A stretch of DNA of 64,000 nucleotides from Desulfosporosinus sp. (GTDB lineage Bacteria; Bacillota; Desulfitobacteriia; Desulfitobacteriales; Desulfitobacteriaceae): the NCBI GenBank assembly GCA_003513495.1, contig DOPM01000043.1, forward strand, positions 907-64,906, read 5' to 3'. Under the pieces are notes generated by a model. The model did no database searches and was not told the DNA's origin. It saw only the letters and a program-made list of their open reading frames with translations. Of the stretch, positions 5,539 through 64,000 are shown piece after piece. The translations under genes were made by a program, and so were the position numbers. Position 1 is the stretch's first letter. Each line of letters starts with the position of its first letter.

Positions 5539-5596
5539 ACCCCCTGTAGATAATAGCATTTAACCTAATGTCGGAACTCAGGAGGTAGCAATAGAT

Positions 5597-6757: not shown

Positions 6758-6764
6758 AAAGATA

Positions 6765-6805: not shown

Positions 6806-6832
6806 AAAGTTCTTATTTTACCCAGTTTAACG

Positions 6833-7171: not shown

Positions 7172-7477
7172 ATGAGTATAGTATTGGTAGGTGGTCATGA
7201 CAGAATGCATAGCGAATATATGGGAATCTGCTCTAAGCGTGGGCACAGTGTAAAAGTCTATACCCAGATGCCTACTAAGTTTGATAAAGTGATCGGATCG
7301 CCTGATGGAATTGTTTTATTTACTTCGACAGTCTCTCATAAAATGATTCACACGGCAGTTAAAGAAGCGAAAAGAAAGAAAATACCAGTATTCAGAAGTC
7401 ATAGCAGCAGTGGTGCTTCCTTAGACAGACTGCTTAACGAACTTGAAGATACGATCGTTCAGAATTACGGGACATAA
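7172..7477 (+). CDS. DUF2325-family protein
   Basis: 101 aa. MSIVLVGGHDRM...DGIVLFTSTVSHKM...KKIPV fits the DUF2325 pattern as I remember it. AGGAGGGG RBS. Confidence 0.6.
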   Translation: MSIVLVGGHDRMHSEYMGICSKRGHSVKVYTQMPTKFDKVIGSPDGIVLFTSTVSHKMIHTAVKEAKRKKIPVFRSHSSSGASLDRLLNELEDTIVQNYGT

Positions 7478-7512
7478 GCTGCTAATCGACGATTCAAGTG
7501 GAGGAAACGTCA

Positions 7513-8211: not shown

Positions 8212-8250
8212 ATAGAATAAATACATATGTAAATGAGTTTACTATAGGGA

Positions 8251-8297
8251 ATCATGAAGGAAGGGGAGCGTTTAATACGCTCCCCTTCCTTCATGAT
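8251..8297. terminator. Bidirectional terminator between convergent genes
   Basis: Perfect 20-bp stem ATCATGAAGGAAGGGGAGCG (8251-8270) / CGCTCCCCTTCCTTCATGAT (8278-8297), 7-nt loop. Confidence 0.8.
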
Positions 8298-8316
8298 ATA
8301 TAATTTTGCAAACTTC

Positions 8317-9513: not shown

Positions 9514-9639
9514 GATGCAACCTCCTGAATTTAATTTAATAGTAAAACTCCAACTTTCTAGTGGGAGTGGCACCCCGTTCTGCTTTTAGACATTCGATGT
9601 TCGCCTTTTTAAGAAATTTCAATTGGAATAAATTTAGAG

Positions 9640-10848: not shown

Positions 10849-11125
10849 AGCATACCCCCTAGAGGCAACGTTCATAGACAGCATAGATATAAGTTGTTCG
10901 CTACTGACATCCTGTTCTACCTTCTACGTTTCTCTAAAATAATCCTGCATAATGAATAAATTTATTTAAAAATATTATAACTTAAAAGGAAATACAATCA
11001 AGTAGTCGATTCTTATCCTAAGAAAAGTTGCTAACCTATTATTTGACCACTTTAGGATAACCTGCTACGCTAATATCGTATATTGATATCGGAGAAAGAT
11101 ATCGGTAATATGTAGAGGTGATACA

Positions 11126-11437
11126 GTGGAAAAACAAATCTACCGAAAGCTATTCTTGGGGTTTATTCAGATTCACATTCTTCATCATGCAAAAAAAGAT
11201 CCCATATTCGGTTCCTGGATGTTAAAGGAGCTTCGTGAGCATGGATATAATTTGAGCGCAGGGACTTTATATCCGCTCCTGCATACCATGGATTCAGCTG
11301 GTTTGTTAGAAAAAGAAGATAGGAACGTTGATGGAAAAATTCGAAAGTACTATAAAACGACGGAAAAAGGAAGCGATGTATTGCAGGAAGCGAAAAATAA
11401 AGCCTATGAGCTTTTCAAAGAACTTAATGAACAATGA
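11126..11437 (+). CDS. PadR-family transcriptional regulator
   Basis: 103 aa. LSAGTLYPLLHTMDSAGLL...RKYYKTTEKG is a typical PadR winged helix. GTG start after AGAGGTG. Confidence 0.85.
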   Translation: MEKQIYRKLFLGFIQIHILHHAKKDPIFGSWMLKELREHGYNLSAGTLYPLLHTMDSAGLLEKEDRNVDGKIRKYYKTTEKGSDVLQEAKNKAYELFKELNEQ

Positions 11438-11461
11438 ATTATACAAGGGAGTGATAATCAA

Positions 11462-12082
11462 ATGTACACACTACGTGGTGTGAAATATAAAAGTATATTA
11501 AATATAGACCAACTAGAAATTCCTAAAGAGAGGATCACCTGTATAATTGGAGAAAGCGGAAGTGGGAAGACAACACTTTTAAAGTTATTAAACCATTTAA
11601 TCAGCCCGGATGAAGGGCAAATCTTGTTTCAGAATAGACCTCTATCCCAATGGGATCCGATTGTGCTCAGACGAAAAGTCATGATGCTTTCACAGTCTCC
11701 AGTAATTTTTGAAGGATCTGTAAGGGATAATTTATTAATCGGATTTAAGTTTTGCGAAAAGCCTCAAGTAGGTGATGCTAAAATCCAGGAAGCCATAAAA
11801 ATCGTTCAATTAAATAAGGATATGTCACTTAATGCCAGTTTTCTATCTGGTGGGGAAAAACAACGTTTGGCTATGGCAAGAGTTTTACTGCTGGAACCAA
11901 ACGTTTTTCTTTTGGATGAACCTTCCTCAGCATTAGATGAAGAGACGGCCCAATCAGTAATGGAGCAAATGGTCAAAGAAGTCAAACGTTTGAAGAAAAC
12001 AATGATTATGGTAACCCACTCTAAAGCCTTAGTTCAAGGTTTTGCTGAGCATATCATAGAAATAAAAAAGGCAATGCAGTGA
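11462..12082 (+). CDS. fetA: ABC transporter ATP-binding protein, FetA/YbbL-like
   Basis: Walker A GESGSGKTT, signature LSGGEKQR, Walker B LLDEP. Paired with a UPF0014 permease. Confidence 0.8.
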   Translation: MYTLRGVKYKSILNIDQLEIPKERITCIIGESGSGKTTLLKLLNHLISPDEGQILFQNRPLSQWDPIVLRRKVMMLSQSPVIFEGSVRDNLLIGFKFCEKPQVGDAKIQEAIKIVQLNKDMSLNASFLSGGEKQRLAMARVLLLEPNVFLLDEPSSALDEETAQSVMEQMVKEVKRLKKTMIMVTHSKALVQGFAEHIIEIKKAMQ

Positions 12083-12101
12083 AAACAAAGGAGGCCATTT
12101 T

Positions 12102-12881
12102 ATGCAGGCGAACATAGATTTATCGATTTGGCAAATGACTGCAGCTTATATTTTTATTCTTGTGCTCATAGTCATAGTTAGATTCAAAGGGATTCCGAGA
12201 GAAAAAGAAATTCTAATTTCTTCCCTGAGAATGACCATTCAACTAGTGCTTGTTGGTTATATACTTGCTTTTGTATTTGAACATAGCCATCCCGTTTATA
12301 CTCTGGGGATTATCACCATTATGCTTATCTTTGCTATCAATAACATCTTTAATCGAACTATATTGCAGTTGTCATCTGAAATAAAGAAGGTCATAGCTCT
12401 TTCTATGACCTTGGGAATCCTTGCAAGTATAGCTTATTTTGTGCTTATAGTATTGCAGGTGTACCCTTGGTACGAACCCAGATATATCATCCCGATTGCA
12501 GGTATGATCATCGGCAACTCCATGACAGGTATCTCGTTGGGTGTTAAAACACTTGTCGAAGGAATGACGACCAATAAACAACTAGTTGAAGCTGCCCTGA
12601 TTCTTGGAGCGTCGCCTAAAATGGCCTCTGAGCAGGTTGTGAAAAGCGCGTTTGATGCCGCTATGATGCCGACCATTAACTCTATGGTCGGGATGGGTAT
12701 CGTCTTTTTACCGGGTATGATGACGGGTCAAATACTCGGCGGTGCTTCACCCGTTATAGCGATAGAATATCAAATCGCTGTGATGCTAGGTATTGTTGGC
12801 AGTGTTTCATTAACCGTATTACTTTTTGTACAGTTGGGCTACAAAACGTTTTTTAATTCTCGCAGTCAAATTAAGCTATAA
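12102..12881 (+). CDS. fetB: FetB/YbbM (UPF0014) family ABC permease, putative iron export
   Basis: 259-aa polytopic membrane protein directly downstream of the FetA-like ATPase. Confidence 0.75.
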   Translation: MQANIDLSIWQMTAAYIFILVLIVIVRFKGIPREKEILISSLRMTIQLVLVGYILAFVFEHSHPVYTLGIITIMLIFAINNIFNRTILQLSSEIKKVIALSMTLGILASIAYFVLIVLQVYPWYEPRYIIPIAGMIIGNSMTGISLGVKTLVEGMTTNKQLVEAALILGASPKMASEQVVKSAFDAAMMPTINSMVGMGIVFLPGMMTGQILGGASPVIAIEYQIAVMLGIVGSVSLTVLLFVQLGYKTFFNSRSQIKL

Positions 12882-12923
12882 CTGTATACGAATATATAAT
12901 AGCCATCTTAAAATACGTTAAGA

Positions 12924-12954
12924 GGGGTATGTAATTCTATGAATTACATACCCC
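12924..12954. terminator. Bidirectional terminator
   Basis: Perfect 14-bp stem GGGGTATGTAATTC / GAATTACATACCCC with a 3-nt loop, between convergent genes. Confidence 0.75.
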
Positions 12955-12999
12955 TGTCGTGTTATGGAGTATTTGGAAAACACTTATCGAGATTAAAGA

Positions 13000-14073
13000 T
13001 TACTTAGCTAGTTCAGGAAAATGTTTCTTAATCAATTCGATAAATGCAGGATTTCTTATCTCGGTTGGTTTTGTTGCAGGGTCGTCTTGAAGATCTTCAT
13101 ATTTCATTGCTCCGAAACTGTGATCTTTTGTGAAATGGCCTCGATCATCAGTTGGATTCTTCCACATTAATTTATCTAAATTAAAGGTTTTTCCAGCGTG
13201 GCATTTCAAACAATTATCAGTTGGTTTGTCCGTCGGTAGGAGAGAGCCATTGGCATTAGCCTTATGGGATGTATGACAAGTGAGACACTGATTCATTTCT
13301 GAGCTTTGAGCATGTTTACTAGCAAAGTAATTTCGTGTACCATAGTGATTGTTTGCAATAAAGGTTCCTTGATCATTTTTAGATGGATTACTTTCATGAC
13401 AGGTATTACACGAATTTCTCGCAACTTCAGAGCTCATTGTTCCCTTCTTATCGGTGGCACTGACGTGATTTCCAGCGGGTCCATGGCAAGATTCGCAGGA
13501 TATACCATAATTAGGAGATCCAGTTTCAACTCCAGGCGAATGACATTTTGCACAGTTGGCGTAACTTTCAGCAGTCCAATCGTTTTTGCCATCTTTGTCA
13601 ATATCAGCTTTCTTTGGAGGTTCAACCGCCCATTTGTCGTTTGTTTTCTTAAGTGCTCCAACACGATAAAATTGATTTTTAAATCCAGCTTCTTTAGGAA
13701 TTTCCGCAATAATATAGTTGTTCACCATAACCCCATAGACTTTCGCTTTAGATAAATCTAGAGTCGTCGATGTAGGTTTTTCCTTGTTGGCGGCATCAAA
13801 AATAGTAATTGGTTCTAGAGGTTTATCAAGCGGAAAGGCGGAAAGCGGTTTGAACGTATCATAGTGTTTTGTATGAGTTACATTCTCATAGGACTCAGTG
13901 TGGCAGGCTTTACATGATTCGTCACCAACATAGCTAACCTTTGGAGTTTCCGTTAGCTGCGGTCCAGATGGCTGAGTAGAAGGGGTTTCATCTGCTTGGT
14001 TGCAACCCATGGTTAATACTGTTAAGAATGTAAGAGAAATAATTGAGGCTAAAAAGGGTTTTTTCCAGTTCAT
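13000..14073 (-). CDS. Hexaheme c-type cytochrome, probable lipoprotein
   Basis: Six CxxCH motifs (CKACH, CAKCH, CESCH, CNTCH, CLTCH, CLKCH). Signal peptide ending LTMGC. AAGGAGG RBS. Confidence 0.85.
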   Translation of the reverse strand: MNWKKPFLASIISLTFLTVLTMGCNQADETPSTQPSGPQLTETPKVSYVGDESCKACHTESYENVTHTKHYDTFKPLSAFPLDKPLEPITIFDAANKEKPTSTTLDLSKAKVYGVMVNNYIIAEIPKEAGFKNQFYRVGALKKTNDKWAVEPPKKADIDKDGKNDWTAESYANCAKCHSPGVETGSPNYGISCESCHGPAGNHVSATDKKGTMSSEVARNSCNTCHESNPSKNDQGTFIANNHYGTRNYFASKHAQSSEMNQCLTCHTSHKANANGSLLPTDKPTDNCLKCHAGKTFNLDKLMWKNPTDDRGHFTKDHSFGAMKYEDLQDDPATKPTEIRNPAFIELIKKHFPELAK

Positions 14074-14441
14074 TGAGTCGTTCCTCCTTTAATCTTGTAT
14101 CCATATTTGTTATTTTCTTGACCAGATAGGTCAGGATGACAGGTGTTATTAGACTTTAAAGATTATGAGCTTAGTTTGCTTAGAAACTAATCGGATAATG
14201 CTTGGATATTAATATATTTCGCATGAAATTTATGGAAAAGAATCTCAAAATTCTCTATCCATATTCGAATGCCATAAAAATACCCAAGTTGAGTTACTTC
14301 TATATCATAAAGAAGCGTAAAGATTCGTTTTTTTTCAATAAATATGGCAGAAGTTAAAGGTTTTTGAATTTTATCCTCGAATTAAGTTCAAATAAACTAT
14401 TGGGGTATAGACATATGTAGTCGAAAGAGGTGAACTTCGTC

Positions 14442-15569
14442 GTGCGTTCGCTCAAACACCAGATTCTTATATTGTTGTTGAGTTCGCTCGTTTTGTTGGC
14501 AGTTAGCTTTCTCGTATTGGTTGGGGTATACATGAAAGATCGTGCCGTAGCCACCGCGATTATCAAAGTAAAAGCAGATTTGGCAACCTGTGAAGAGATT
14601 CTAAATAAGACATATCCCGGCTCGTGGTCAGAACAAGGCGGAAACCTTTATAAAGGACCCGTAAAAATAAGCCTTAATAATGATATTGTGGATCATTTAT
14701 CTAGTCTTACAGGGGACACTGTCACCGTATTTCTAGGAGACACGCGAGTCGCTACTACTGTACGTGGTTCAAACGGTGAACGAGTTATTGGGACGAAGGT
14801 TTCTTCTAATGTGGCCCAGACGGTATTGAAAAATGGTCAGACCTATGTGGGAGAGGCTGATGTTGTAGGTGAATGGCACCAAGCGGGTTACATTCCATTA
14901 CGTACAGATAATGGAAACATTATTGGGATTTTTTACGTAGGAATTTCTCATTCCTATGAGCAAGATATTTTTACTAGATCTTTACTTAAGATGGCTGGAA
15001 TAGGACTGGCCTTAACCATCCTGGTGGCGTTTCTTACCTGGTTTTTCCTTCAGAGAGTTATCGTTAATCCTTTGCACAATATCATGTTAGGAACTCGGGA
15101 CGTAGCAACCGGTCATCTCACTGAGAAGATAAACGTTTCCGGAGCTAAGGAAATAGGGGAGCTTGAGGATGCCTTTAACCAAATGGTTGAACAAATCCAA
15201 TCTCTAACTGGAGAGATAAACAGAGTCACTAGCAATAGTTCTGAAAATAGCCCACCTGAAACTAACCACCATGAAAATAACCATTCGATTTCTACTGGGT
15301 ATATACCTCTACCCAACCTATCGGCTGTTGGATCGTTCGGAGAAATGGTTTTGCCTAAAGGTTTGCATCAAGCTACTCTAGGCCAAATAGTTCAGTTTTT
15401 AAATGCGAATCGTCGTCCTCTTTCTGCTGAGGAAGTTGCAGAAGGAGTTAAGCTGACAAGGGTTACAGTACGCCGTTACCTAGAATTCCTCGAACAAAAT
15501 GGAACATTAAAATCTGAACAGAAGTATGGAACAGTGGGACGGCCCGTCAAGATCTTTATCCCGTTGTAA
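14442..15569 (+). CDS. Membrane one-component regulator: Cache-like sensor + HAMP + CitB/DcuR-type C-terminal HTH, with no kinase or receiver domain
   Basis: TM1, then a periplasmic Cache-like region (GDTVTVFLGDTRVATTV...GIFYVGIS). TM2, HAMP, a low-complexity linker, then an HTH LSAEEVAEGVKLTRVTVRRYLEFLEQNG...YGTVGRPVKIF. GTG 14442 lies 9 nt after AAGAGGTG. The track start is 14430. Confidence 0.8.
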   Translation: MRSLKHQILILLLSSLVLLAVSFLVLVGVYMKDRAVATAIIKVKADLATCEEILNKTYPGSWSEQGGNLYKGPVKISLNNDIVDHLSSLTGDTVTVFLGDTRVATTVRGSNGERVIGTKVSSNVAQTVLKNGQTYVGEADVVGEWHQAGYIPLRTDNGNIIGIFYVGISHSYEQDIFTRSLLKMAGIGLALTILVAFLTWFFLQRVIVNPLHNIMLGTRDVATGHLTEKINVSGAKEIGELEDAFNQMVEQIQSLTGEINRVTSNSSENSPPETNHHENNHSISTGYIPLPNLSAVGSFGEMVLPKGLHQATLGQIVQFLNANRRPLSAEEVAEGVKLTRVTVRRYLEFLEQNGTLKSEQKYGTVGRPVKIFIPL

Positions 15570-15617
15570 AAAGGTTCCCGATGGGGGCGTCCCATTTTAA
15601 AAAACATATATTTTTTC

Positions 15618-15652
15618 AGAGACTCCTCTTTAATTAGGTGGAGTCTTTTTTA
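15618..15652 (+). terminator. Intrinsic terminator
   Basis: AGACTCC (15620-15626) / GGAGTCT (15640-15646), followed by T6. Confidence 0.7.
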
Positions 15653-15984
15653 GTTCAAGGGTTGGGTACCGTTAGTTGTTATTATTATCAAGTGCAATTG
15701 TATTGTTATGGACAAATAGTTATCAGACTAGTATGCATATTTGGACTTAACTACTTACTTCGCCATTTTCTTAATTAATAAAATTTTCTTTATTCACAAA
15801 ACGCTTATTTAATGTCCAAAAACACGACAGATCGAGTGAAGGAAGCTAAACTAGAAATAAAAACCGACGTTCCCCATTAGATATCGATAAGCCGTAGAGA
15901 TTAAATTTGGAGAAAGCGCAAAATCAATTAAGAAAGAGGTGTAAATGAAGGTAACATTCGCTGGTAGTAAAAAGGAGGATTTTC

Positions 15985-16473
15985 ATGTGTGATACAGCTT
16001 CGCCAAATCAGTTTGTCAAAAAGCTAGATGATTATATCGACAGTTTGACCAATAAAAAGGAAAATCTTATTGGGGTCCTTCATTACGCTCAAGAAATATA
16101 TGGATACTTACCTAATAATGTTCAATGGCATATCGCTCAGAAACTGGATATACCTTCCGCAATGGTCTATGGTGTTGTCAGCTTTTATTCTTTTTTTACA
16201 ATGATACCCAGGGGAGAACACGTGGTTAATGTGTGCACCGGTACCGCTTGTTTTGTTCGAGGGGCTGAAAAATTAAAAGAAGAACTTGAAAATCAGCTTA
16301 AGATTAAAGCTGGGGAAACTACTCCAGATAATCTGTTTACCTTAGAAACTTTGCGTTGTGTTGGAGCCTGTGGGCTCGCTCCAGTCATGATCGTCGATGG
16401 TGAAGTGCATGGACGCATGCACGAACCCCAAGCCATTAACGAGGTCTTGGCAAAGTATCGCCCAGAAAGTTAA
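15985..16473 (+). CDS. hydC: NuoE-like [2Fe-2S] subunit of NADH-linked [FeFe]-hydrogenase (HydC)
   Basis: Thioredoxin-like 2Fe-2S pattern C-x4-C...C-x3-C (VCTGTAC...CVGACGLAP). First gene of the hydCBA order. AAGGAGG RBS. Confidence 0.9.
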   Translation: MCDTASPNQFVKKLDDYIDSLTNKKENLIGVLHYAQEIYGYLPNNVQWHIAQKLDIPSAMVYGVVSFYSFFTMIPRGEHVVNVCTGTACFVRGAEKLKEELENQLKIKAGETTPDNLFTLETLRCVGACGLAPVMIVDGEVHGRMHEPQAINEVLAKYRPES

Positions 16474-46351: not shown

Positions 46352-46571
46352 GTAATCCCTTACGGTTATTTCTCAGTTTCTTAAGGCAGTTTGGGCACTG
46401 GGCACGATTTTAATTAAATGATGATTATGAAATTATTTTGGCGAAATGACAACTTGTTATATCGCCTTTTTATTTAGTTATAGGGGGGATAGAAATAAGG
46501 AATGTGAAACCGGCCTTCCTATAGAAGGTAAACAATGCTTTTGGGTTGAATAACTCAATTAGTTGTAAACT

Positions 46572-46665
46572 TAAAATACGCAAACCTAATGAAAGTTAGG
46601 GACGCAAAGCCACGGGTCTAAGGGTCGTACTTTGTACAATCACGATAGCCGGGTTGCAGAAGCGC
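46572..46665 (+). promoter_or_regulatory. c-di-GMP-I (GEMM-I) riboswitch aptamer
   Basis: ACGCAAACC-UAAUGAAAGUUAGG-GACGCAAAGCC-ACGGGUCUAA...AGCCGGGUUGC matches the conserved GEMM-I core (GCAAACC, GNRA loop, GGGACGCAAAGCC, CGG.CUAA, AGC.GGGUU.C). Confidence 0.85.
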
Positions 46666-46714: not shown

Positions 46715-46823
46715 GTTCTGGTTATGAATTGGGGGGATATTAAGGCGGTATCACTGTCATCTTTGAATGAAAGGCCGATGTCGAATAATAATATTTGATC
46801 ATTACATGAATGGGGATGAAGGT

Positions 46824-48887
46824 ATGTTTAAGAAACTATTTAATATTTCTAGCCTCAGTAGTAAGACAATGGTGACGATTTTACCCTTAGTACTATTAAC
46901 TTTAGTGGCTATGTCAGTAATCAGCTATAAATATTCAGAAAATCTACTTAAGAATGAGATTCAAAATAAAATGACTGCTCAATTAAAAGGTACGATCAAA
47001 GATATCGAGAAGCAATTAACGGCCCATGATACGCTGCTTCAAGGTCTAGCGCGTACTGTAGAGTCTATTGGTAACGGTGTAAGTACTGAAGAGTATGCAA
47101 GTTTGCTCCAGAAAATGATAACAGCTAATAGCGTTACCTTTGGAGCAGGGGTGTGGTATGAACCTTATGCTTATAACAGTGATACTCAGTACTTTGGACC
47201 TTATGTATATAAAGATAAAGACGGTAAAGTAGTGTTTACCAATGAATATGCTGACCCTAAATATGATTATCCCGCTCAGAAATGGTATACCATAAGTAAA
47301 GGTATTACTGAGAAATCCATTTGGACTGATCCCTATTATGATGAAGGTACTAAGGCTACCATATTAACGGACAATGTCCCGTTTTATGATAATAGTGGAA
47401 ATTTCAAGGGTACAATAACCGGTGGGATTGATTTCACTACGTTACAAACGTTAATTAGTAATATTCAATTAGATATCGAAGCAGATATTTACCTCTTGAA
47501 TAAAGAAGGTAAGTATCTGGCGAATCCAAATCCAAAAAAGATCATGAATATCAAAATTACGGAAGAAGAGAACCTCAGCTTGAAAGAAGCTGCAGAAAAG
47601 ATGATGGCTGAGAAAAGCGGCACGGTTCCTTACAATAACAATGGGGCCAGGCAAGTTTACTATGCAGAAGTTCCGCAGTTTGGTTGGATTTTAGCAATTG
47701 ATGTTTCGGAAAATGACTTGATGGCTCCGTTAAAGGATCTATTGAATCGAATGCTAATTCTAATTGTACTGGCAATGGCGGTAACCTGCACAGTGCTCAT
47801 CTTATATAGTCGCTATATAGTTAAAAATATCAAAATGGTCAATCGGTTTGCATCAGCTATTGTTCAAGGGGATCTTAGCCAAACCATGGTCGTTCGTTCG
47901 AAAGATGAGTTCGGACAGATGACTGAAAATCTTAATAGGATGATGAACAACTATAAAGGAATTATTAATGGTATTGTAAATAGTTCCGAACAATTAGCAG
48001 CCTCTGCAGAAGAATTAACTGCTAGTGCCGATGAAGGGAGTAGGACAACGGAGCAAATTGTTTACTCCATTCAAGAAGTTTCTGACGGGGTTAAGGAAAA
48101 GCTAACGGGTGTCGACGCCACGGCGCAGTCTGCCCAATTAGTCTCTGTGCATATGCATACTATCACCCAGGATATCAATTTAGTAACGGCAGGGTCCCAC
48201 GCTACATCAGTGAAGGCTGCTAATGGGAATAGTGTTGTTAAAAAAGCTGTAGACGAGATGCAAGCGATTAGTACTAAGGTCATAGAGGCAGCAGATGTGG
48301 TGAATAGTTTAGGGGAAAAATCAGCGGAAATTGGTGAGATAGTAGGAATAATAACCAGTATTGCGGCTCAAACAAATCTCCTCGCTCTAAATGCTGCTAT
48401 TGAGGCCGCACGGGCAGGCGACCAGGGAAGGGGGTTTGCAGTTGTCGCTGATGAAGTCCGTAAACTTGCTGAACAGTCGAGTGATGCCGCCGGCAAAATA
48501 AGTGGTTTGGTGGGCGAGATTCAAAAAGAAACCTCAAAGGCAGTTAAGACTATGAATGATGGAACTGCCGCGGTTCAAGACGGGATTACTATGGTTAATT
48601 CGGCGGGTGAAGCGTTTCAAGATATCTTGCAGGGAGTTAACGACTTTTCAAAACAGGCACAAGCTGTTGCTGACGTGATAGAGAAGGTTGGGACAAGTAC
48701 TGAGACAATTGTTGCTTCAATCATGGAAGTAGCCAGCATTCCTAAGGAAATTGCCGGTAGTCTTGAAAATGTAGTTGCAGGGACAGAAGAACAGAGTGCT
48801 TCTATGGAAGAAATTCGTAGATCGGCTACCTCACTTGCCCAAATGGCAACAGACTTCCAGGGCAGTGTGACCATGTTTAAACTTTAA
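46824..48887 (+). CDS. Methyl-accepting chemotaxis protein with double-Cache-like sensor and HAMP
   Basis: Highly conserved signalling hairpin [39 protein letters not shown]. Periplasmic region of about 280 aa between two TMs. ATG 46824 (MFKKLFN). Confidence 0.9.
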
Positions 48888-55367: not shown

Positions 55368-55838
55368 ATGAACTATAGAGTTACAAGTTTAACGGTTCAA
55401 CAAACCCGAGAACTGGGAAAACAGCTAAGCGAGCATTTAATCGGTGGAGATGTCGTTGCACTGATAGGGGATTTAGGTGCCGGAAAAACAGCCTTTGCTC
55501 AAGGGATAGGTGAGGGGCTAGGGGTCGTTGGCTCTATGACCAGCCCAACCTTCACTTTAATACATGAGTATAAGGGCTTTATTCAAAATACTAAGCTCCG
55601 ATTAATTCACATGGATCTTTATCGATTACGACACCCGGAAGAAGCGGAGATTATTGGGATTGAAGATGCCTTTGTAGATGATGCGGTTTGTTTAATTGAA
55701 TGGCCAGAAATTGCAGAGGATTATTTGCCAGACGATCGGTTAACTGTTGAGATTAAAGGAAGTGGGGACATGCCTCGTGAGATTATCTTTAAGGCTAAGG
55801 ATCCAAATTGGGAGCAACGTCTAAAGTTTCTATCCTAA
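55368..55838 (+). CDS. tsaE: tRNA t6A37 biosynthesis ATPase TsaE
   Basis: P-loop GDLGAGKTAFAQG, SPTFTL motif. Gene order tsaE-tsaB-rimI-tsaD. Confidence 0.9.
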   Translation: MNYRVTSLTVQQTRELGKQLSEHLIGGDVVALIGDLGAGKTAFAQGIGEGLGVVGSMTSPTFTLIHEYKGFIQNTKLRLIHMDLYRLRHPEEAEIIGIEDAFVDDAVCLIEWPEIAEDYLPDDRLTVEIKGSGDMPREIIFKAKDPNWEQRLKFLS

Positions 55839-55905: not shown

Positions 55906-56631
55906 ATGAAGTACTTAACCATAGATACAACAACTAAAGTTACAGCCGTAGCACTAGCTGAGGACGAGAAGCTGGTTGGCGAGGGTTTTCTACATACCAC
56001 TAAGACACATTCAGAGCGTATCATTCCGATGCTTGATCAGCTGCTTAATGCTGCGGCTTGGAAACTTCAGGACCTGGATATGATTGGTGTGGTACGTGGA
56101 CCAGGCTCGTTTACTGGAATCAGAATTGGAATTGCCACAGCCCAGGGATTGGCCCAGGTTTTGAAGATCCCCATCATTTCCGTAGTGTCCTTAGATGCCT
56201 TAGCTTGGGCAGGTAAGGGAAGAACAGAGGATATTGTTCCTATTTTAGATGCGCGGAAGAATGAGTGGTATACGGGGCGTTATCGTTGGATTCAAGGAGT
56301 AGAGAAGCCAGAGTGTTTAACCTCGCCGCAAGCCATGCCTACAGGTCAATGGTTGGAATTTTTATGGGGATTAGATCGTCCTATATGTTTCGTTGGAGAT
56401 GCAGTTGGTAAGGCTAAAGGGCATATAGAACAGGTATTTGGTGATCGAGCAGTGATTCTACCAGAGTATGCTTGCTTACCTCGAGGGGCTTATGCCGTAG
56501 AAGCGGTTTGGCAGAGATGGTTACAAACGGGAAAAGGGGAATTGGTTGAACCCTATTACATTCGCTTTTCTGAGGCAGAGGTCAATTGGGCGAAGAAAGA
56601 GAAAGCGCGAAGGAGCGAGGGACATGAATGA
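55906..56631 (+). CDS. tsaB: tRNA t6A37 biosynthesis protein TsaB
   Basis: MKYLTIDTTT start, GPGSFTGIRIG motif. Confidence 0.9.
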   Translation: MKYLTIDTTTKVTAVALAEDEKLVGEGFLHTTKTHSERIIPMLDQLLNAAAWKLQDLDMIGVVRGPGSFTGIRIGIATAQGLAQVLKIPIISVVSLDALAWAGKGRTEDIVPILDARKNEWYTGRYRWIQGVEKPECLTSPQAMPTGQWLEFLWGLDRPICFVGDAVGKAKGHIEQVFGDRAVILPEYACLPRGAYAVEAVWQRWLQTGKGELVEPYYIRFSEAEVNWAKKEKARRSEGHE

Positions 56632-57091
56632 CGGGATTGTACGTCCCATGTGTATGGACGATCTCGAGGCAATCTTGAAGATCGAGATTGCCTCTTTTTC
56701 TACCCCTTGGTCTTTGCAAGCTTTTCAAGCGGAGCTTAAAGATAATGAATATGCGCGTTATGTTTGCTTAGAGGTAGAAGGTAAGGTCATAGGTTACATG
56801 GGGTTATGGTTTATCTTGGATGAAGGTCATATTACGAATGTGGCTATTGCTCCCAACTATCGGGGACAACATTGGGGGGAGTTTCTTATGCGTTCGGTGA
56901 TGTCGAAAATGAAGGATGAGGGTATGGAACGGATGACCCTCGAAGTTCGAGCATCCAATAGGCCTGCTCAGTCTTTATACAATCGATTAGGTTTTTTTAC
57001 AGCTGGTATTCGCAAAGGATATTATGCGGATACTGGAGAGGACGCCCTGATCATGTGGGCGGAATTGGGAACGGAAGTGAATAAATCATGA
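56624..57091 (+). CDS. rimI: Ribosomal-protein-alanine N-acetyltransferase RimI (GNAT)
   Basis: GNAT motif A (RGQHWGEFLM). ATG 56624 overlaps the tsaB stop (ATGAATGA). The track ORF begins earlier inside tsaB. Confidence 0.85.
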   Translation: MNDGIVRPMCMDDLEAILKIEIASFSTPWSLQAFQAELKDNEYARYVCLEVEGKVIGYMGLWFILDEGHITNVAIAPNYRGQHWGEFLMRSVMSKMKDEGMERMTLEVRASNRPAQSLYNRLGFFTAGIRKGYYADTGEDALIMWAELGTEVNKS

Positions 57092-58116
57092 CAGAGAATC
57101 CAAAGAGCGAGGTTGTTATTTTAGGAATTGAAACAAGCTGTGATGAGACATCAGCCGCTGTATTGTTGAATGGGACGGATTTACGAAGTCATGTTATTTC
57201 ATCACAAATTACGACGCATCAGAAATATGGAGGGGTTGTGCCGGAGATTGCCTCTCGTGAACACAGCCTCCATTTTCAACCAGTAGTACAACAAGCCCTA
57301 GATGAAGCAGGGCTGACCTTCGGGGATTTATCAGCGATTGCAGTGACCTATGGTCCAGGATTAGTCGGATCCTTATTGGTCGGAGTTTCAGGGGCAAAAG
57401 CAATGGCCTATGCGGCTGGAGTTCCTCTGATTGGTATTAATCACCTGGAAGCTCATATTTATGCCAACTTTTTAGAGCATCAAGATTTAAGTTTTCCTCT
57501 TCTCGCCTTACTAGTTTCAGGGGGACACTCTCATCTTATTTTGTTTGAAGCCCACGGACAGTACAAGGTCTTGGGGCGCACACGAGATGATGCGGCCGGA
57601 GAAGCATTAGATAAAGTAGCAAGAACGTTAGGATTAGCTTATCCAGGAGGCCCTCAAATTCAAAGAGTAGCGCAGGAGGGGGATGCCCAGGCCTATACCT
57701 TTCCTCGCGCTATGTTAGAGCCAGATAGTTTGGATTTCAGTTTTAGTGGTATGAAATCAGCGGTTTTAAACACCTTGAACTCTGCCCGCATGCGCGGTGA
57801 AACCTTAAGTGTTCCAGATATAGCTGCATCCTTCCAGCAAGCCGTAGTAGATGTTTTAGTTAGGAAAGCACTGATGGCTCTTGAACGGACCAACGTCAAA
57901 ACCTTGCTCTTAGCGGGTGGGGTTGCTGCTAATAAGCTATTACGTGAAACACTAGACCAATCGTTGTCAGTCCGAGGTGTTCGCTTAGTTTATCCATCCC
58001 CTATATACTGTACTGACAATGGAGCCATGATTGCGACGGCTGGGTATTATCATTATCTAGAAGGGGACTTTGCTCCTTGGACCTTAAATGCGGTTCCAGG
58101 TTTGAATCTGACGTAA
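57088..58116 (+). CDS. tsaD: tRNA N6-adenosine threonylcarbamoyltransferase TsaD (Gcp/Kae1)
   Basis: ILGIETSCDETSAAV N-terminus and HLEAHI metal motif. ATGA overlap with rimI. Confidence 0.95.
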   Translation: MTENPKSEVVILGIETSCDETSAAVLLNGTDLRSHVISSQITTHQKYGGVVPEIASREHSLHFQPVVQQALDEAGLTFGDLSAIAVTYGPGLVGSLLVGVSGAKAMAYAAGVPLIGINHLEAHIYANFLEHQDLSFPLLALLVSGGHSHLILFEAHGQYKVLGRTRDDAAGEALDKVARTLGLAYPGGPQIQRVAQEGDAQAYTFPRAMLEPDSLDFSFSGMKSAVLNTLNSARMRGETLSVPDIAASFQQAVVDVLVRKALMALERTNVKTLLLAGGVAANKLLRETLDQSLSVRGVRLVYPSPIYCTDNGAMIATAGYYHYLEGDFAPWTLNAVPGLNLT

Positions 58117-58140
58117 GTGAAGTTCAAAATCTAAACAAAC

Positions 58141-58175
58141 GAAGCGAGAATTATGTTTTTCTTGCTTCTTTGTTA
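58141..58175 (+). terminator. Intrinsic terminator after tsaD
   Basis: GAAGCGAGAA (58141-58150) / TTCTTGCTTC (58159-58168), one G-T wobble, then TTTGTT. Confidence 0.75.
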
Positions 58176-58214
58176 TTCAAGGGTTTTTTTAGAAAGATAA
58201 AGAATCATATGTTC

Positions 58215-58389
58215 TGGGGATAAGATGGACCTGTGGACAATGTGGATAAGTCTGTAGATAACTCAAAATAGCGGTTTTGAAGGTCTGTACAAAATTTTTG
58301 GGTTTGGGATAGATTTTATCCACAAGACCTGTGGATAATGTGGATAACTTATGAACAAGGCTAAAGTCTTAGATTCTATAAGTGGATAA
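58215..58389. promoter_or_regulatory. DnaA-box cluster: 4 perfect and 4 one-mismatch TTATCCACA boxes
   Basis: Perfect boxes: TGTGGATAA 58241-58249, 58330-58338 and 58339-58347, and TTATCCACA 58316-58324. One mismatch: 58215-58223, 58232-58240, 58253-58261 and 58381-58389. Confidence 0.8.
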
Positions 58390-58557
58390 CTTTGTGGGTT
58401 GAAATACTGATTGTTTTGTGTAAATAATAGAAAAGAGAGATGATATGTTTGCATATTGATAAAATTCACAAAATATTTCATTTATAACAGAAGGATTTTG
58501 CCTATATTAATCGAATATTTTTAAATGCACGATATTTTACCGAAAGGGAAGCACCAC

Positions 58558-59139
58558 ATGAATGAGGAAAAAATGAACTTAAAGGCCGAAGTGCGCAAAG
58601 AGTGTTTGACTCAACGAGCCTTATTGGGAGAGGAAGAGAGAAGGACCAAAAGTTTAATTATTCAGCAAAAACTTAGGGATTTACCAGACTTCCAAAAGGC
58701 CCGTACAGTGATGTTATTTCTTAACTTTAGAGATGAAGTGGAAACGACTGACTTGGCAGAGGCGACAATAGCGTGTAATAAAAAGCTCATATTACCTCGT
58801 TGTGCACCTAAGGGCATACTTCTTCCACTTGAGGTCCGCGATCTGGCAGTCGATCTTGAGCCGGGAGCTTGGGGAATTCGTGAGCCCAAACTTACAAAAG
58901 AAGAGGTAAATCCTTTAGAGATTGATTTAGTCGTTGTGCCTGGAGCGGGTTTTGATCTGCGAGGGAATCGTTTGGGGTATGGGGGAGGCTTTTATGATCG
59001 CTTTTTTATGCGGCTGAAACCTTCAACGCCCAGAGTTGCGCTTGCTTTCGAATGTCAAATTATTGAACAAGTTCCCGTGGACAAGCATGATGCTAAAATG
59101 ACTAAATTAATTACGGAGAAAACAGTCTACGATTTTTAG
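58558..59139 (+). CDS. 5-formyltetrahydrofolate cyclo-ligase
   Basis: VVPGAGFDLRGNRLGYGGGFYDRF signature. Start is ATG 58558 or 58573. The track ORF starts at 58525. Confidence 0.85.
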   Translation: MNEEKMNLKAEVRKECLTQRALLGEEERRTKSLIIQQKLRDLPDFQKARTVMLFLNFRDEVETTDLAEATIACNKKLILPRCAPKGILLPLEVRDLAVDLEPGAWGIREPKLTKEEVNPLEIDLVVVPGAGFDLRGNRLGYGGGFYDRFFMRLKPSTPRVALAFECQIIEQVPVDKHDAKMTKLITEKTVYDF

Positions 59140-59173
59140 AAACAACAACAGTAATTCAATAGGGGGGATTTTT

Positions 59174-59656
59174 TTGAGCACCGCGTGTGAGGAGTTAGTG
59201 GATCCTAAGCAAATTAAGTTGGATGAGATTATTAACAAGCATAGGTATGACAATGGGCCGCTTATCCCGATTCTGCAAGGAGCACAAGAGGTATATGGGT
59301 ATTTGCCAGCCCATGTGATTAAACACATTAGTAAAGCAATTCGTATTCCGGTGGCAAGAATTTATGGTGTAGTAACATTTTATGCTCAGTTTCGTCTAAC
59401 CCCAGTAGGGCGAAATTTGATCAATATTTGCTTAGGAACAGCTTGCCATGTTCGTGGAGGCGCCAAAGTCGTTGAAACCATTGAGAAAGAATTAAAGATT
59501 AAAGATGGGGCTACGACTGAAGATGGGCGTTTTACATTAGAAGTTGTGGCATGTATTGGAGCTTGTGGTCTGGCACCGGTGATTTCTATTAATAATGAGG
59601 TTCATGGACGATTGTCACCGGACAAAATTGCCGGGATATTGGCCAAATACGAGTAG
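59174..59656 (+). CDS. NuoE-like [2Fe-2S] subunit of the formate dehydrogenase complex
   Basis: Paralog of hydC (ICLGTACHVRG...CIGACGLAP). TTG start 6 nt after AGGGGGG. Confidence 0.9.
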   Translation: MSTACEELVDPKQIKLDEIINKHRYDNGPLIPILQGAQEVYGYLPAHVIKHISKAIRIPVARIYGVVTFYAQFRLTPVGRNLINICLGTACHVRGGAKVVETIEKELKIKDGATTEDGRFTLEVVACIGACGLAPVISINNEVHGRLSPDKIAGILAKYE

Positions 59657-59668
59657 GAGGATAAAGGG

Positions 59669-61465
59669 ATGGCTGAGAACCAACGGATTCTAGTTTGTGC
59701 AGGGACGGGATGTGCCTCTTCGGGAGCGCTTCCTATCATTGATATTCTGAATGATGAAATCAAGCGGCAAGGACTTGAGGAAACTGTAACCGTGGTTGGT
59801 ACAGGATGTCAAGGATTTTGCGAAAAAGGACCAACACTCGTCATTGAGCCGCAGCAGATCTTATATACCCGGGTTACTGGGGAAGATGTTGCGGAAATTG
59901 TAAGTCAAGAGCTTGTCAAAGGGGAACGAGTTGAACGACTTCTTCTTGTCGATCAAGCAACTCAAAAACCAGTTAGTTCAATGGCTGACATAAGGTTTTT
60001 CTCTAAACAACATCGAATTGTTCTTCACAATTGCGGGGTTATTGACCCTAAGAAGATTGAAGATTACACCGCACGTGATGGATATAAAGGCATTGAAAAG
60101 GCCCTTAAGGGTATGTCCCCGGAAGAGGTCATGGAAGAGGTCAAGAAGTCCGGTCTTCGTGGTCGTGGAGGTGCTGGCTTCCCTACAGGAGTTAAGTGGG
60201 GTTTCTGTCGGTCTACCCCAAGTGATAAAAAGTATATTATTTGCAACGCTGACGAAGGAGATCCTGGAGCATTCATGGATCGAAGTGTACTTGAGGGAGA
60301 TCCCCATTCTGTTATTGAGGGAATGCTCATTGGAGCTTATGCCATCGGAGCAGACGAAGGATACGTTTACTGTCGTGCAGAGTATCCATTAGCTATTAAG
60401 AACTTAGGTATAGCAATCAAGCAAGCGAAAGAAGCAGGTTATCTAGGAGATAACATTTTGGGCTCAGGCTTTAATTTTCATCTGAAAATTTTTGAAGGGG
60501 CTGGAGCCTTTGTCTGCGGAGAGGAAACCGCATTAATGGCTTCAATAGAAGGGAAACGCGGAATGCCTAGAGTTCGCCCACCTTTTCCTGCGGTTAGCGG
60601 ACTTTGGGGCAAACCAACCAATATCAATAACGTTGAAACTTGGTCAAATATTCCGCATATTTTACGCAACGGAGCAGACTGGTATTCCCAATTCGGGACG
60701 GAAAAGAGCAAAGGGACTAAAATCTTTGCCTTGACCGGTAAAGTTAATAATACAGGCTTAGTAGAAGTCCCGATGGGTACAACTCTCAGAGAGATTATCT
60801 TTGACATTGGAGATGGCATTCAAGGCGGTAAGAAGTTTAAAGCAGTGCAAATTGGAGGACCCTCTGGTGGATGCTTGCCTGAAGATATGCTCGATCTAGC
60901 CGTTGATTATGATACCTTGACACAAGCTGGAGCAATGGTTGGCTCAGGTGGACTAGTTATCATGGATGAGACCACTTGTATGGTGGATATTGCCCGTTAT
61001 TTCTTAAACTTTTCGAAGAAGGAATCTTGTGGTAAATGTACCCCTTGTCGTGAGGGAACCACGAGGATGTATGAGATTCTAGATAGAATCACAAAAGGTG
61101 AAGGTAAAGAGGAAGATCTCGATACCTTAGAAAATCTCGCAATAACCATCAAGGAAACCTCACTCTGTGGATTGGGTCAGTTTGCACCTAGCCCCATTCT
61201 TGCAACTCTTAAATACTTTAGGCATGAGTATCTAGCACATATTCATGACCATAAGTGTCCTGCCCATAATTGCACGGCCCTACTAAGCTATTCAATTGAT
61301 ACAGAGAAATGTAAAATGTGTAGTCTCTGTGCTAAGAATTGCCCGACGAATTGCATTTCAGGAGATAAGAAAACTAATACTCCGTATGTCATTGATGTTG
61401 AGAATTGCATCAAATGTGGAACCTGTATGGACAAATGTAAGTTTGGTGCAGTTAGTCGAGCCTAG
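59669..61465 (+). CDS. NuoF-like NAD(P)H/FMN-binding subunit of the formate dehydrogenase complex
   Basis: [13 protein letters not shown] motif, N-terminal thioredoxin-like domain, C-terminal 2x[4Fe-4S]. Paralog of hydB. Confidence 0.9.
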   Translation: [598 protein letters not shown]

Positions 61466-61520
61466 TGAGTGAGGATCGAAACTACCCATTCGGATGGATA
61501 AACTGAGAGGAGTGAACATT

Positions 61521-64000
61521 TTGGAGTGGCTTACCTTAACAATTGATGGACGTGAAGTCAGCGTTCCCAAGGGAACGACCGTACTTGATGCCTGTCGGAT
61601 GAATAATATTCCAATTCCTACCTTGTGTCATGCCCCAGAGCTTACCTCTGCTGGAGCCTGCCGTTTGTGTGTTGTTCAAATCGAAGGAATGCGTAATCTT
61701 CCACCTTCGTGCGTTACTCAAGTCGCTCAGGGTATGAAAGTAGAAACACAAAATCCTAAAGTTCGTAATGCACGTAAAACAATCTTAGAGCTTTTGGTTG
61801 CAAATCATCCTTTAGATTGCATGACCTGTCAGAAAATGGGAGATTGTTCCTTAGCAGAGTATGCTTATGACTATGGAGTAACTGGGACCGTTTATCAAGG
61901 GGAGAAACGTTGTCTCCCGATTGATGACGGAAATCCTTTCATATTACGTGATCCCAATAAATGTATTCTTTGTGGCAAATGTATCAAAGCATGTACTGAA
62001 ATCCAAGGAAAAAGCATTCTAGACTTTTCATTTCGAGGATTTGATACCCAGGTGGGCCCCGCCTTCAATTTACCTTATAATGAATCGGATTGTGATTTCT
62101 GTGGATCCTGTGTCTCAGTCTGCCCAGTTGGTGCGCTGACTGAAAAGCAAATGGCCGGTAAAGGACGTCCTTGGGAAGTATCCAAAGTCCAAACCACTTG
62201 TCCTTTCTGCGGAGTAGGTTGCAACTTTGACCTAAATGTCAAAGACGGAAAAGTCATTGGGGTAACTTCTAATCCTGAGGTACCTGTTAATGGTAAAGCT
62301 TTATGTGTTAAAGGTCGTTTTGGGATGGACATGATCTATAGCGACAATCGCATAACCACACCTTTAATTAGGAAAAATGGAGAACTAGTTCCGGCAGAGT
62401 GGGATGAGGCTCTGGATTTGGTTGCCACTAAGTTGGGTGAGATTAAAAAGACCTATGGTCCCAACTCTATTGCAGCTTTAAGTTCAGCTCACTGCACTAA
62501 TGAAGAAAACTATCTTATGCAAAAATTCATGCGCGCGGTAATCGGCACAAACAATGTCGATCACTGCGCCAGGACTTGACACGCTCCCACTGTGGCCGGT
62601 CTGGCCACCTCATTTGGATCCGGAGCGATGACTAACTCAATTAATGAAATTCCTAACGTTAAGGCTATGTTTGTAATTGGTTCTAATCCGACAGAAGCGC
62701 ATCCGGTAATCGGAACAAAAATGAAACAAGCCCTCGCAAAAGGTGCTAAACTTATTGTTGCTGACCCTCGGTGCATTGATCTTGCCGAGCATGCAGATGT
62801 TTGGCTAAGACTTAGACCTGGAACGGATATTGCTTTGATCAACGGAATCATGAACATTATTCTTGCTAACGAGTGGGAAAATAAAGAATTTATTGCTGAA
62901 CGAACAGAAGGCTTTGAAAAAGTTCGTGAAGCAGTACAGCAATATACTCCAGAAGTAGTAAGTAAAATAACGGGAGTTCCTGTAGAACAGCTCCAAGAGG
63001 CTGCCAAAATCTATGCTACCGCTGAACGAGCTTCAATCTTCTATACCTTAGGGATAACTGAACATACCTGCGGTACAGATAATGTCATGAGTTTGGCAAA
63101 CCTCGCTATGCTGACAGGAAATATTGGTAAGGAGAGTTCAGGGGTTAACCCAATGCGCGGGCAGAATAACGTACAGGGTGCCTGCGATATGGGAGCACTT
63201 CCTAATGTTTATCCCGGTTACCAACAGGTTGCTAGCCCAGAAGTACGGGCCAAGTTCGAAGCAGCTTGGGGAGTTCCCCTAGATCCTAATCCCGGCTTTA
63301 TGATTCCAGATATGTTTGGGGCTGCAGTTAGTAAGGATCTGCGTGCTCTGTATGTCATGGGAGAAGATCCGGTCATTACTGATGCTGATGCGAACCATGT
63401 ACGCAAAGGTCTTGAGGCATTAGACTTCCTTGTTGTTCAAGAAATTTTCTTGTCTGAAACAGCAAAGCTTGCAGATGTCGTCTTACCTGGTGCTAGTTTT
63501 GCAGAGAAGACAGGCACCTTCACAAATACTGAGCGAAGAGTGCAAATGGTAAATCAGGCCATTAAGCCTATTGGAAATGCTAAGACAGATGGGGAGATCA
63601 TTTGTGAGCTGGCTACTCGTATGGGTTACCCCTTCAACTATGAATCTTCTGCAGAAGTCATGCAGGAAATTTCAAAGCTCGCGCCACAATTTGGGGGTAT
63701 AACCCATGAGCGATTAGGAACACAAGGGTTGCAATGGCCTGTACCGCATGCAGAGCACCCAGGCACCAAGTTCCTGCATGAAGGGAAGTTTAACCGGGGC
63801 AAAGGACTCTTTATGGCTATTGAAAATCAGCTGCCTGCTGAAATGCCTGATGAGGAATATCCTTTCTTGCTCAATACCGGGCGTAAACTCTCTCACTATA
63901 ATGTTTTCACACAACACTCACCTTCATTAGGCGACCATTCTCCTGAAGAACTTGCTGAGGTTAATCCTTCAGACGCTAAGAAGCTGGGAATTGAAGATGG
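61521..64000 (+). CDS. fdhA: Selenocysteine-containing formate dehydrogenase alpha subunit with NuoG-like N-terminal Fe-S domains (3' partial; in-frame TGA at 62577-62579)
   Basis: The frame reads [29 protein letters not shown], the canonical Sec/Cys active-site context of FdhA/FdhF. It stays open from 62580 to the window end. A hairpin follows the TGA directly. TTG 61521 lies 8 nt after GAGAGGAG. The alternative ATG 61494 lacks an RBS. Confidence 0.9.
62577..62608 (+). other. UGA selenocysteine codon plus candidate SECIS hairpin
   Basis: TGA at 62577-62579. GTGGCC (62592-62597) / GGCCAC (62603-62608) with loop GGTCT begins 13 nt after the TGA. Confidence 0.75.

Follow-up and report, generated by a model that had tools for sequence, protein, structure and literature searches.

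A DnaA-box cluster behind tsaD in Desulfosporosinus, a probable clostridial counterpart of the Bacillus subtilis gcp-ydiF cluster

Why should eight binding boxes for the replication initiator DnaA be gathered behind tsaD (gcp), the last gene of its operon, in a stretch of chromosome that holds no dnaA gene? The question is raised by a 64-kb stretch of Desulfosporosinus DNA from a rock-porewater metagenome (part of a 196-kb JGI contig), which was analyzed in full and is called the window below. The initial annotation had described the boxes and had noted that one of the few DnaA-box clusters (DBCs) of Bacillus subtilis outside the replication origin, oriC, lies between gcp and ydiF; the presence of such a cluster outside oriC is indeed published (PMC3245932). 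The Desulfosporosinus cluster is probably a non-origin element, the clostridial counterpart of this DBC[gcp-ydiF], and may sequester DnaA. The two parts of that statement differ in strength. The likeness in sequence and position makes an orthologous non-origin DnaA-binding cluster very likely, and sequestration as its main role can be put forward tentatively.

Box positions come from pattern searches of the window together with reading of the sequence at 57000-59400. The eight boxes, each with at most one mismatch, fall within 175 intergenic bp (58215-58389), and all of the positions listed in the initial annotation, which had counted four perfect and four one-mismatch boxes, were found again:

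58215..58223, minus strand: DnaA box 1, TTATCCCCA, one mismatch; in relatives the base is that of TGTGGATAA in 21-23/23 sequences per position
58232..58261, minus strand: DnaA boxes 2, 3 and 4, the head-to-tail core, TGTGGACAATGTGGATAAgtcTGTAGATAA; spacings of 9 and 12 bp; box 3 perfect
58316..58324, plus strand: DnaA box 5, perfect; 16-23/23 per base in relatives
58330..58347, minus strand: DnaA boxes 6 and 7, a perfect back-to-back tandem, TGTGGATAATGTGGATAA; 19-23/23 per base in relatives
58381..58389, minus strand: DnaA box 8, TTATCCACT, one mismatch; kept in Desulfosporosinus, not in loci L003 and L004

Perfect copies of TTATCCACA are found at 58241(-), 58316(+), 58330(-) and 58339(-), and these four are the only ones in the 64 kb, compared to a mean of 0.53 per window in shuffled sequence. 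The one-mismatch boxes, all on the minus strand, are those at 58215, 58232 (TTGTCCACA), 58253 (TTATCTACA) and 58381. Both orientations and back-to-back pairs had been noted before; the pairs are two (58232/58241 and 58330/58339), and the orientations are divided 7:1, since seven boxes read TGTGGATAA along tsaD and only the box at 58316 is opposed to them. This box and box 6 form a 9-bp inverted repeat with a 5-nt gap at 58316-58338 (TTATCCACA-5 nt-TGTGGATAA; TTATCCACAAGACCTGTGGATAA), and four of the boxes are packed into 47 bp. Within the two head-to-tail arrays, neighboring boxes either abut or are 3 bp apart. Elsewhere in the window, boxes with one mismatch or fewer number 20, or 0.055 per 175 bp, which gives a probability of 1.9e-15 for eight or more boxes in 175 bp and of about 1e-10 after correction for all start positions. 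The first box is reached 99 bp past the tsaD stop codon.

Comparison with close relatives showed that the boxes are the part of this region that is kept. When the window was aligned with three loci whose TsaD is 76-90% identical (L001, L003 and L004), the invariant blocks were the boxes, with boxes 6 and 7 unchanged in all four, and the spacers, the hairpin after tsaD and the AT-rich part diverged. The same pattern was seen in 23 distinct Desulfosporosinus-type sequences. Boxes 1, 5, 6, 7 and 8, which were absent from the search pattern that gathered these sequences, are kept at 16-23/23 per base, nearly all at 21-23; the less-kept bases are position 4 of box 5 (16/23), the last of box 6 (19/23) and the first of box 8 (10/23). 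Spacer bases are kept at 10-23/23, with insertions and deletions. These data show that, among relatives, the boxes are conserved and the spacers are not, as in an oriented array of consensus boxes under strong selection.

Positional conservation after tsaD had been suggested in the initial annotation, with a comparison across Firmicutes as the way to see it, and such a comparison revealed box enrichment. Boxes were counted in the 500 bp past the tsaD stop codon in the loci of relatives of the window TsaD, 77 of which were usable. Three or more boxes were present in 21/77 loci and in 3/1015 control windows of the same loci (Fisher 7e-23, a value that overstates the significance because the loci are phylogenetically related). 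Box orientation in the positive loci was 95:17 in favor of TGTGGATAA reading along tsaD. The positives comprise Desulfosporosinus and its neighbors, Gracilibacteraceae, Thermincola, Ruminiclostridium/Acetivibrionales, Oscillospiraceae, Clostridiaceae, Sedimentibacter and Thermoanaerobacterium; loci labelled Halobacteroidaceae or non-Bacillota were negative in this test. In the reverse direction, all species genomes were searched for exact copies of the pair TGTGGATAATGTGGATAA, and the first 120 matches were examined. Among the matches listed, the pair is tsaD-adjacent in at least nine loci, always in the same orientation, and this context (9) is about as frequent as dnaA (7-8 loci) or dnaN (5 loci). 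These loci belong to Syntrophomonas, Thermincola ferriacetica and an Oscillospiraceae genome and, in the Bacilli, to Kroppenstedtia, Amphibacillus, Pseudalkalibacillus, Saccharibacillus and Paenibacillus. In Paenibacillus, a cluster of at least four boxes lies within 4 kb downstream of tsaD in 60/78 loci, directly after tsaD in 13 and mostly 2.3-3.6 kb away; in one of them, L070, the cluster adjoins the 3' end of a ydiF-type ABC-F gene. In closed Paenibacillus records tsaD is about 1-2 Mb from the record start, which would also be its distance from dnaA if each record begins at that gene. Several clostridial orders, and Bacilli as well, share with the window the arrangement, position and orientation of the boxes.

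A second TsaD scan, seeded with a Paenibacillus sequence, gave Paenibacillaceae only, and for B. subtilis the comparison rests on published work, along with the other Bacilli that the pattern searches brought up. That species has six DnaA-box clusters apart from oriC, with gcp-ydiF among them (Okumura 2012, PMC3245932). DBC[gcp-ydiF] has eight boxes, four of which match TTATNCACA and three of those TTATCCACA; four boxes make up a core of 49 bp (Ishikawa 2007, PMC2533591). It is located between the 3' ends of the convergent gcp and ydiF genes, a position that its authors regarded as atypical for transcription control, and was described as 'highly conserved' in the Bacillaceae, which is the scope of the published conservation (PMC2533591). 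It ranks with the strongest sites in vitro (dissociation constant 0.15 uM for ATP-DnaA), and at 55 nM DnaA its DNA was recovered 16x more with ATP-DnaA than with ADP-DnaA (Smith and Grossman 2015, PMC4447404).

The gene that follows the cluster differs among lineages:

Desulfosporosinus group: 5-formyltetrahydrofolate cyclo-ligase (5-FCL), co-directional
Thermincola (L006): lgt, co-directional
Thermoanaerobacterium: 2-hydroxyacid dehydrogenase, co-directional
Ruminiclostridium group: SLT transglycosylase, convergent
Sedimentibacter, a Clostridiaceae genome and Pseudalkalibacillus: ydiF-type ABC-F, convergent

The order tsaD> DBC <ABC-F in loci L035, L061 and L262 is the layout of B. subtilis; the window itself contains no ydiF-type ABC-F gene. 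The simplest history would be that an ancestral tsaD> DBC <ydiF arrangement predates the split of Bacilli and Clostridia and was later altered by insertions or replacements on either side. In two of the Bacilli the first 70 bp past tsaD hold a further feature: a perfect box in the opposite orientation is placed in the loop of a 15-bp stem in Amphibacillus (L204), and TTATCCACA and TGTGGATAA themselves make up a hairpin stem in Pseudalkalibacillus (L262). In both, a DnaA box may overlap the tsaD terminator.

Several lineages share a head-to-tail core of 30 nt. The core ccTGTGGATAATGTGGATAAgtcTGTtGATAA is common to Desulfosporosinus, Thermincola and Syntrophomonas, and its degenerate form, TGTGGATAATGTGGATAAgtcTGTwGATAA, extends over several clostridial orders. 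The Bacilli have the tandem pair with the same flank as the clostridial core, and in Ruminiclostridium and its relatives the spacing is mirrored (12 + 9 bp). The exact 30-mer TGTGGAYAATGTGGATAAGTCTGTWGATAA was found in 69 genomes and is tsaD-adjacent in 43, always in the same orientation; its carriers are many Desulfosporosinus and Syntrophomonadaceae and also Thermincola, Desulfoscipio, Desulfofundulus, Desulfovirgula and Gelria. We considered the core as proof of common descent and rejected it, since it is also present at comFC/hpf and other loci; its identity alone reflects a constraint of DnaA binding rather than descent. The core appears to be a general high-affinity module.

How such a cluster would act can be pictured from the B. 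subtilis measurements. Binding of ATP-DnaA to the head-to-tail arrays would be cooperative and of high affinity, as was measured for the B. subtilis cluster, and would lead to a stable oligomer that does not unwind the DNA; the bound complex would be unable to do so because DnaA-trios, and probably also a proper unwinding element, are missing. The locus would in this way keep a share of the cell's DnaA off oriC and, together with other such clusters, buffer initiation. In Desulfosporosinus, the complex would sit 10-110 bp upstream of promoter-like sequences of the 5-FCL/NuoEF/formate-dehydrogenase genes and may tune them.

Several observations weigh against a conserved, DnaA-sequestering counterpart of DBC[gcp-ydiF]. 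Apart from the relatedness of the loci that inflates the Fisher value, tsaD loci labelled Lachnospiraceae were without a cluster in the 500-bp test, a leuA-like gene stands between tsaD and the cluster in the one such Paenibacillus locus examined (L070), and in at least four Desulfosporosinus genomes the cluster precedes 5-FCL without an upstream tsaD. The 30-nt core is also found beside comFC/hpf, MFS-transporter and histidine-kinase genes. Binding of DnaA at the Desulfosporosinus cluster would follow by analogy from what was measured in B. subtilis. In that species, deletion of all six clusters advanced initiation, while deletion of DBC[gcp-ydiF] by itself left ori/ter at 0.99 of wild type, and re-insertion of DBC[gcp-ydiF] at 353 degrees brought no rescue of the strain that lacks all six (1.35 vs 1.37) (PMC3245932); a 2026 review cites solely the six-cluster result (PMC13220808). 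The statement in the initial annotation that such clusters titrate DnaA is therefore published for the six clusters jointly and not for gcp-ydiF alone, and the sequestration part of our interpretation is weak because the B. subtilis counterpart alone has no phenotype.

The separation of the cluster from tsaD takes different forms within Desulfosporosinus. In L283, L286, L323 and L338 the cluster and the 5-FCL/NuoEF genes are intact and the upstream neighbor is other than tsaD (a ParA-like ATPase and a histidine kinase in L323, an unassigned 214-aa open reading frame (ORF) in L283), and in three further genomes tsaD is 2-3.3 kb from the cluster. The junction is therefore a recurrent point of insertion or rearrangement.

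The alternatives have to be seen against the genes that surround the cluster in the window:

55368-55838: tsaE (Pfam)
55906-56631: tsaB, encoding a TsaB-type TsaD-fold protein (Pfam)
56546-57091: rimI-type GNAT gene (Pfam)
57088..58116, plus strand: tsaD (gcp), last gene of the tsaE-tsaB-rimI-tsaD operon (Pfam TsaD, 1.1e-100)
58141..58168, plus strand: terminator-like hairpin after tsaD (consensus scan: 10 pairs, 8-nt loop, T-rich tail TTTGTTATTC)
58399..58526, plus strand: AT-rich region 5' of the next gene, with promoter-like hexamers (consensus scan and sequence reading)
58573..59139, plus strand: 5-FCL (Pfam 5-FTHF_cyc-lig, 1e-44; start at 58573 as in public assemblies)
59174-62579: NuoE-like, NuoF-like and formate-dehydrogenase/NuoG-like genes (Pfam 2Fe-2S_thioredx, Complex1_51K, Fer2_4/Molybdopterin)

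The Pfam match at 57088-58116 agrees with the earlier placement of the cluster downstream of tsaD, and the product is 90% identical to TsaD of Desulfosporosinus sp. SRJS8. The hairpin at 58141-58168 is not kept in relatives. Three promoter-like pairs of hexamers were read in the AT-rich region, TTGAAA-18-AATAAT (58399-58428), TTTATA-16-TATATT (58481-58508) and TTGCCT-17-TTAAAT (58498-58526), in a scan whose count of such sites is no higher than in shuffles. The first and third are 10 bp and 109 bp past the last box. The stretch 58400-58520, described as AT-rich in the initial annotation, measures 77.7% A+T and ranks among the top 0.2% of 120-bp windows; alignment succeeds only with Desulfosporosinus relatives that have the same downstream gene, and conservation there is partial. 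The sequence at 58490-58572 upstream of the 5-FCL start (GAAGGATTTTGCC...ATTAATCGAATA...AAATGCACGAGATTTTACCGAAAGGGAAGC), which includes TTGCCT-17-TTAAAT, is common to many Desulfosporosinus genomes and could simply be promoter plus 5' untranslated region. Neither an Rfam family at E<=1 in 58100-58620 nor a tRNA or tmRNA was found, and a plasmid or mobile origin was rejected, megablast against plasmids having given no match for the segment from tsaD through 5-FCL. As for transcripts, the sequence was seen only in DNA metagenomes, and one soil metatranscriptome contained 10% of its words, too few to be of use; no usable ChIP run was found either.

Eight boxes beside so AT-rich a stretch are what one might expect of a replication origin, and the initial annotation had left room for a cryptic or secondary one at this site. 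That caveat is not supported. GC skew, which had been named as a way to place the site relative to oriC, is positive in 31/32 2-kb bins of the window (the exception, -0.007, is ~28 kb from the cluster), and the cumulative skew climbs throughout with no switch of sign. The plus strand is consequently the leading strand, and any origin would have to be sought beyond the left end of the window, over 58 kb away from the cluster. That the cluster is away from any dnaA gene is true of the 64 kb, as six-frame translation of the window contained no DnaA signature and clostridial DnaA and DnaN queries had no tblastn match in it (58 kb upstream and 6 kb downstream of the cluster). The basal unwinding system of Bacillota origins needs at least three DnaA-trios, mostly 3'-GAT-5', no more than 16 bp from a box (PMC8287927); runs of three or more 3'-GAT/AAT-5' trios, sought as (TAR)x3 or (YTA)x3, are absent from 58100-58600, the permissive (NAN)x3 rule of the same paper being too loose to inform. 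The AT-rich part lies directly 5' of the next gene, with promoter-like hexamers in it, and is not conserved where that gene differs, and the B. subtilis counterpart is regarded as a non-origin site (PMC3245932, PMC2533591, PMC4447404). On the evidence of these 64 kb, the cluster lies outside oriC and is not an origin; as an explanation of the boxes and their AT-rich neighbor, a cryptic or secondary origin is extremely improbable. Still less credit can be given to the idea that the boxes came together by chance, or that the region codes for the product of an ORF running across it:

58263..58481, minus strand: 72-aa ORF over the cluster, judged not a gene

A public annotation does place a gene here (JGI record 3300002735, contig BICA1a_1067609, 92 aa over the boxes, window 58205-58481 (-)), and the minus strand is open for 45-108 aa among relatives. 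However, the box density has a chance probability of ~2e-15, conservation is limited to whole 9-mers that are invariant at all three codon positions, and single-base gaps in the spacers break the frame. The residues of the 72-aa ORF are largely translated boxes (...SYPHYPQ...) and have no Pfam match, and TTATCCACA is stop-free in every frame on the minus strand, so that open frames arise automatically. The JGI gene spans 277 bases, which is not a multiple of three, and crosses a stop codon in the window sequence. False gene calls over DnaA-box clusters are probably recurrent, and the initial annotation was right to treat this ORF as probably spurious.

Two further explanations concern what a bound cluster might do. 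DnaA could control transcription of the 5-FCL/NuoE/NuoF/formate-dehydrogenase-like operon according to replication status, as it does at sda, ywlC and yydA in B. subtilis. The promoter-like sites 10 bp and 109 bp past the cluster, with 58498-58526 partly conserved in the genus, are in line with this, as is the persistence of the cluster with 5-FCL in the genomes that lack the tsaD neighbor; in Thermincola and Syntrophomonas the last box is a few tens of bp ahead of the lgt start codon, and DnaA regulates transcription at other B. subtilis clusters (PMC2533591). Yet the downstream gene changes from 5-FCL to lgt or 2-hydroxyacid dehydrogenase with the lineage, it is often a convergent gene (SLT transglycosylase, ABC-F) that offers no promoter to control, the B. 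subtilis site is flanked by 3' ends on both sides, and none of the boxes covers a -35 or -10 hexamer. As an explanation of the cluster, transcription control is unlikely, and it is not the conserved function because convergent genes stand there in many lineages. A local effect on the 5-FCL/NuoEF/Fdh genes in this genus is plausible, given the distances of 10 and 109 bp and the retention with 5-FCL, and it is compatible with a sequestering counterpart of DBC[gcp-ydiF]. The cluster might instead be a catalytic nucleotide-state site, a Bacillota analog of E. coli datA (ATP-DnaA hydrolysis) or DARS (ATP-DnaA regeneration) rather than a passive sink. Box number, spacing (9 + 12 bp) and orientation are kept over very large evolutionary distances, which is more than a passive sink calls for, the B. 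subtilis counterpart strongly prefers ATP-DnaA (PMC4447404), and a datA/DARS counterpart is not known in B. subtilis (PMC13220808). On the other hand, single deletion of the B. subtilis site had no initiation phenotype (PMC3245932), the same core occurs at several unrelated loci, and IHF, a requirement of datA and DARS2, has no reported homolog in B. subtilis (PMC13220808). A catalytic site seems improbable. The conserved geometry and orientation do leave room for an active role, whether in DnaA nucleotide state or as a transcriptional roadblock, for which we would claim only a small chance. In its broadest form, which is hardly less doubtful, the cluster would be an ancient Bacillota cis-element with an active function served by its fixed head-to-tail array, for example a datA/DARS-like switch or a DnaA roadblock that couples read-through from the tsaD operon to replication. 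Its fixed orientation relative to tsaD is probably also fixed relative to fork movement. If true, an active element would account for the lack of a titration phenotype in B. subtilis at what is the most conserved non-origin DnaA site of Firmicutes.

The searches for the tandem pair and the core also brought up clusters at other places. In L170, L285, L322, L334, L347 and L249 the pair or the 30-nt core lies beside hpf, encoding a ribosome hibernation factor, and a comFC-like gene, a context found in Peptococcaceae, Desulfovirgula and Desulfofundulus (comFC-like also in Desulfosporosinus sp. FKB); this is probably a second non-origin cluster in those genomes. In Lachnospiraceae and related gut Clostridia the pair is situated between a murC-type Mur ligase gene and a DnaB_2-domain gene, the product of which is a DnaD/DnaB-like replication initiation protein. 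Such loci number ~29-33 among the matches listed in the 120 examined (L165, L174, L177, L184, L190, L194, L195, L208 and others), and the pair is often present in 2-4 copies, 100-180 bp apart, which suggests a different conserved DnaA-box cluster before a replication gene. The 30-nt core was also met on L285, L296 and L321, labelled as metagenome-assembled genomes of Sumerlaeota, Solirubrobacterales and Chitinophagales, which are probably mis-binned Bacillota contigs.

The rest of the window consists of ordinary chromosomal genes (P-type ATPase, GGDEF proteins, Tex, lactate permease, a methyl-accepting chemotaxis protein (MCP) gene). Its sole Rfam match, outside the cluster region, is a c-di-GMP-I riboswitch (RF01051, 69.9 bits, E = 1e-11) at 46569-46661 (+), directly 5' of the MCP gene at 46767-48887, whose product has dCache, HAMP and MCPsignal domains; two GGDEF-related genes are found elsewhere in the window, e.g. 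at 9640-10884. Positions 1-16000 have a G+C of 0.37-0.41 vs 0.42-0.47 in the remainder and hold genes for a P-type ATPase, a metallophosphoesterase, a flavodiiron-type protein, a GGDEF protein and a Cache/HAMP/HTH protein.

The recurrence of this cluster bears on a long-standing gap, as DBC[gcp-ydiF] is among the strongest and most ATP-selective DnaA sites of B. subtilis and has been without an assigned function since 2007. The same position, orientation and array geometry in many Clostridia point to selection across the whole Bacilli-Clostridia divergence. The question of function is now easier to approach, with a 30-nt core to mutate, Lachnospiraceae as natural 'knock-outs' and lineages in which the cluster is split from tsaD. 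For annotation, the locus is a warning that box clusters beside AT-rich DNA should not be taken as origins. Our literature search, whose coverage is incomplete, found no papers linking DnaA boxes with tsaD or reporting this cluster in Clostridia; its broader results were oriC studies. Elements of this kind, and their conservation behind gcp in Bacillaceae, have been known since 2007; what is added here is comparative, namely conservation, orientation and a shared core across two classes.

Compared with known systems, the cluster shares with oriC of Bacillota the same TTATCCACA boxes, tandem pairs and an AT-rich neighbor, and differs from it in having no dnaA/dnaN, skew switch or DnaA-trio array. 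E. coli datA, DARS1 and DARS2 are likewise non-origin clusters in which the number and orientation of the boxes are fixed and through which initiator availability is controlled; there is no homology to them in sequence or position, and they depend on IHF/Fis and on box arrangements that the window does not show. No catalytic activity is known for a Bacillota cluster. With the promoter clusters of B. subtilis (sda, ywlC/tsaC, yydA and dnaA), where DnaA acts as a transcription factor (PMC2533591), it has in common boxes near promoter-like sequences of a co-directional gene, and ywlC is, like tsaD, a t6A-synthesis gene; unlike in those, the window boxes lie upstream of the hexamers and not across them, and most lineages have no downstream promoter. 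The differences from DBC[gcp-ydiF] are that the next gene is the co-directional 5-FCL instead of the convergent ydiF, that the host is a clostridial sulfate reducer and that DnaA binding, measured in B. subtilis, is predicted here. The similarities to it are the location outside oriC and directly 3' of tsaD after the same tsaE-tsaB-rimI-tsaD operon, eight boxes in each with four counted as perfect, tight packing in one orientation (47 bp here compared to the 49-bp four-box core) and, in both classes, intermediate genomes with tsaD> DBC <ABC-F.

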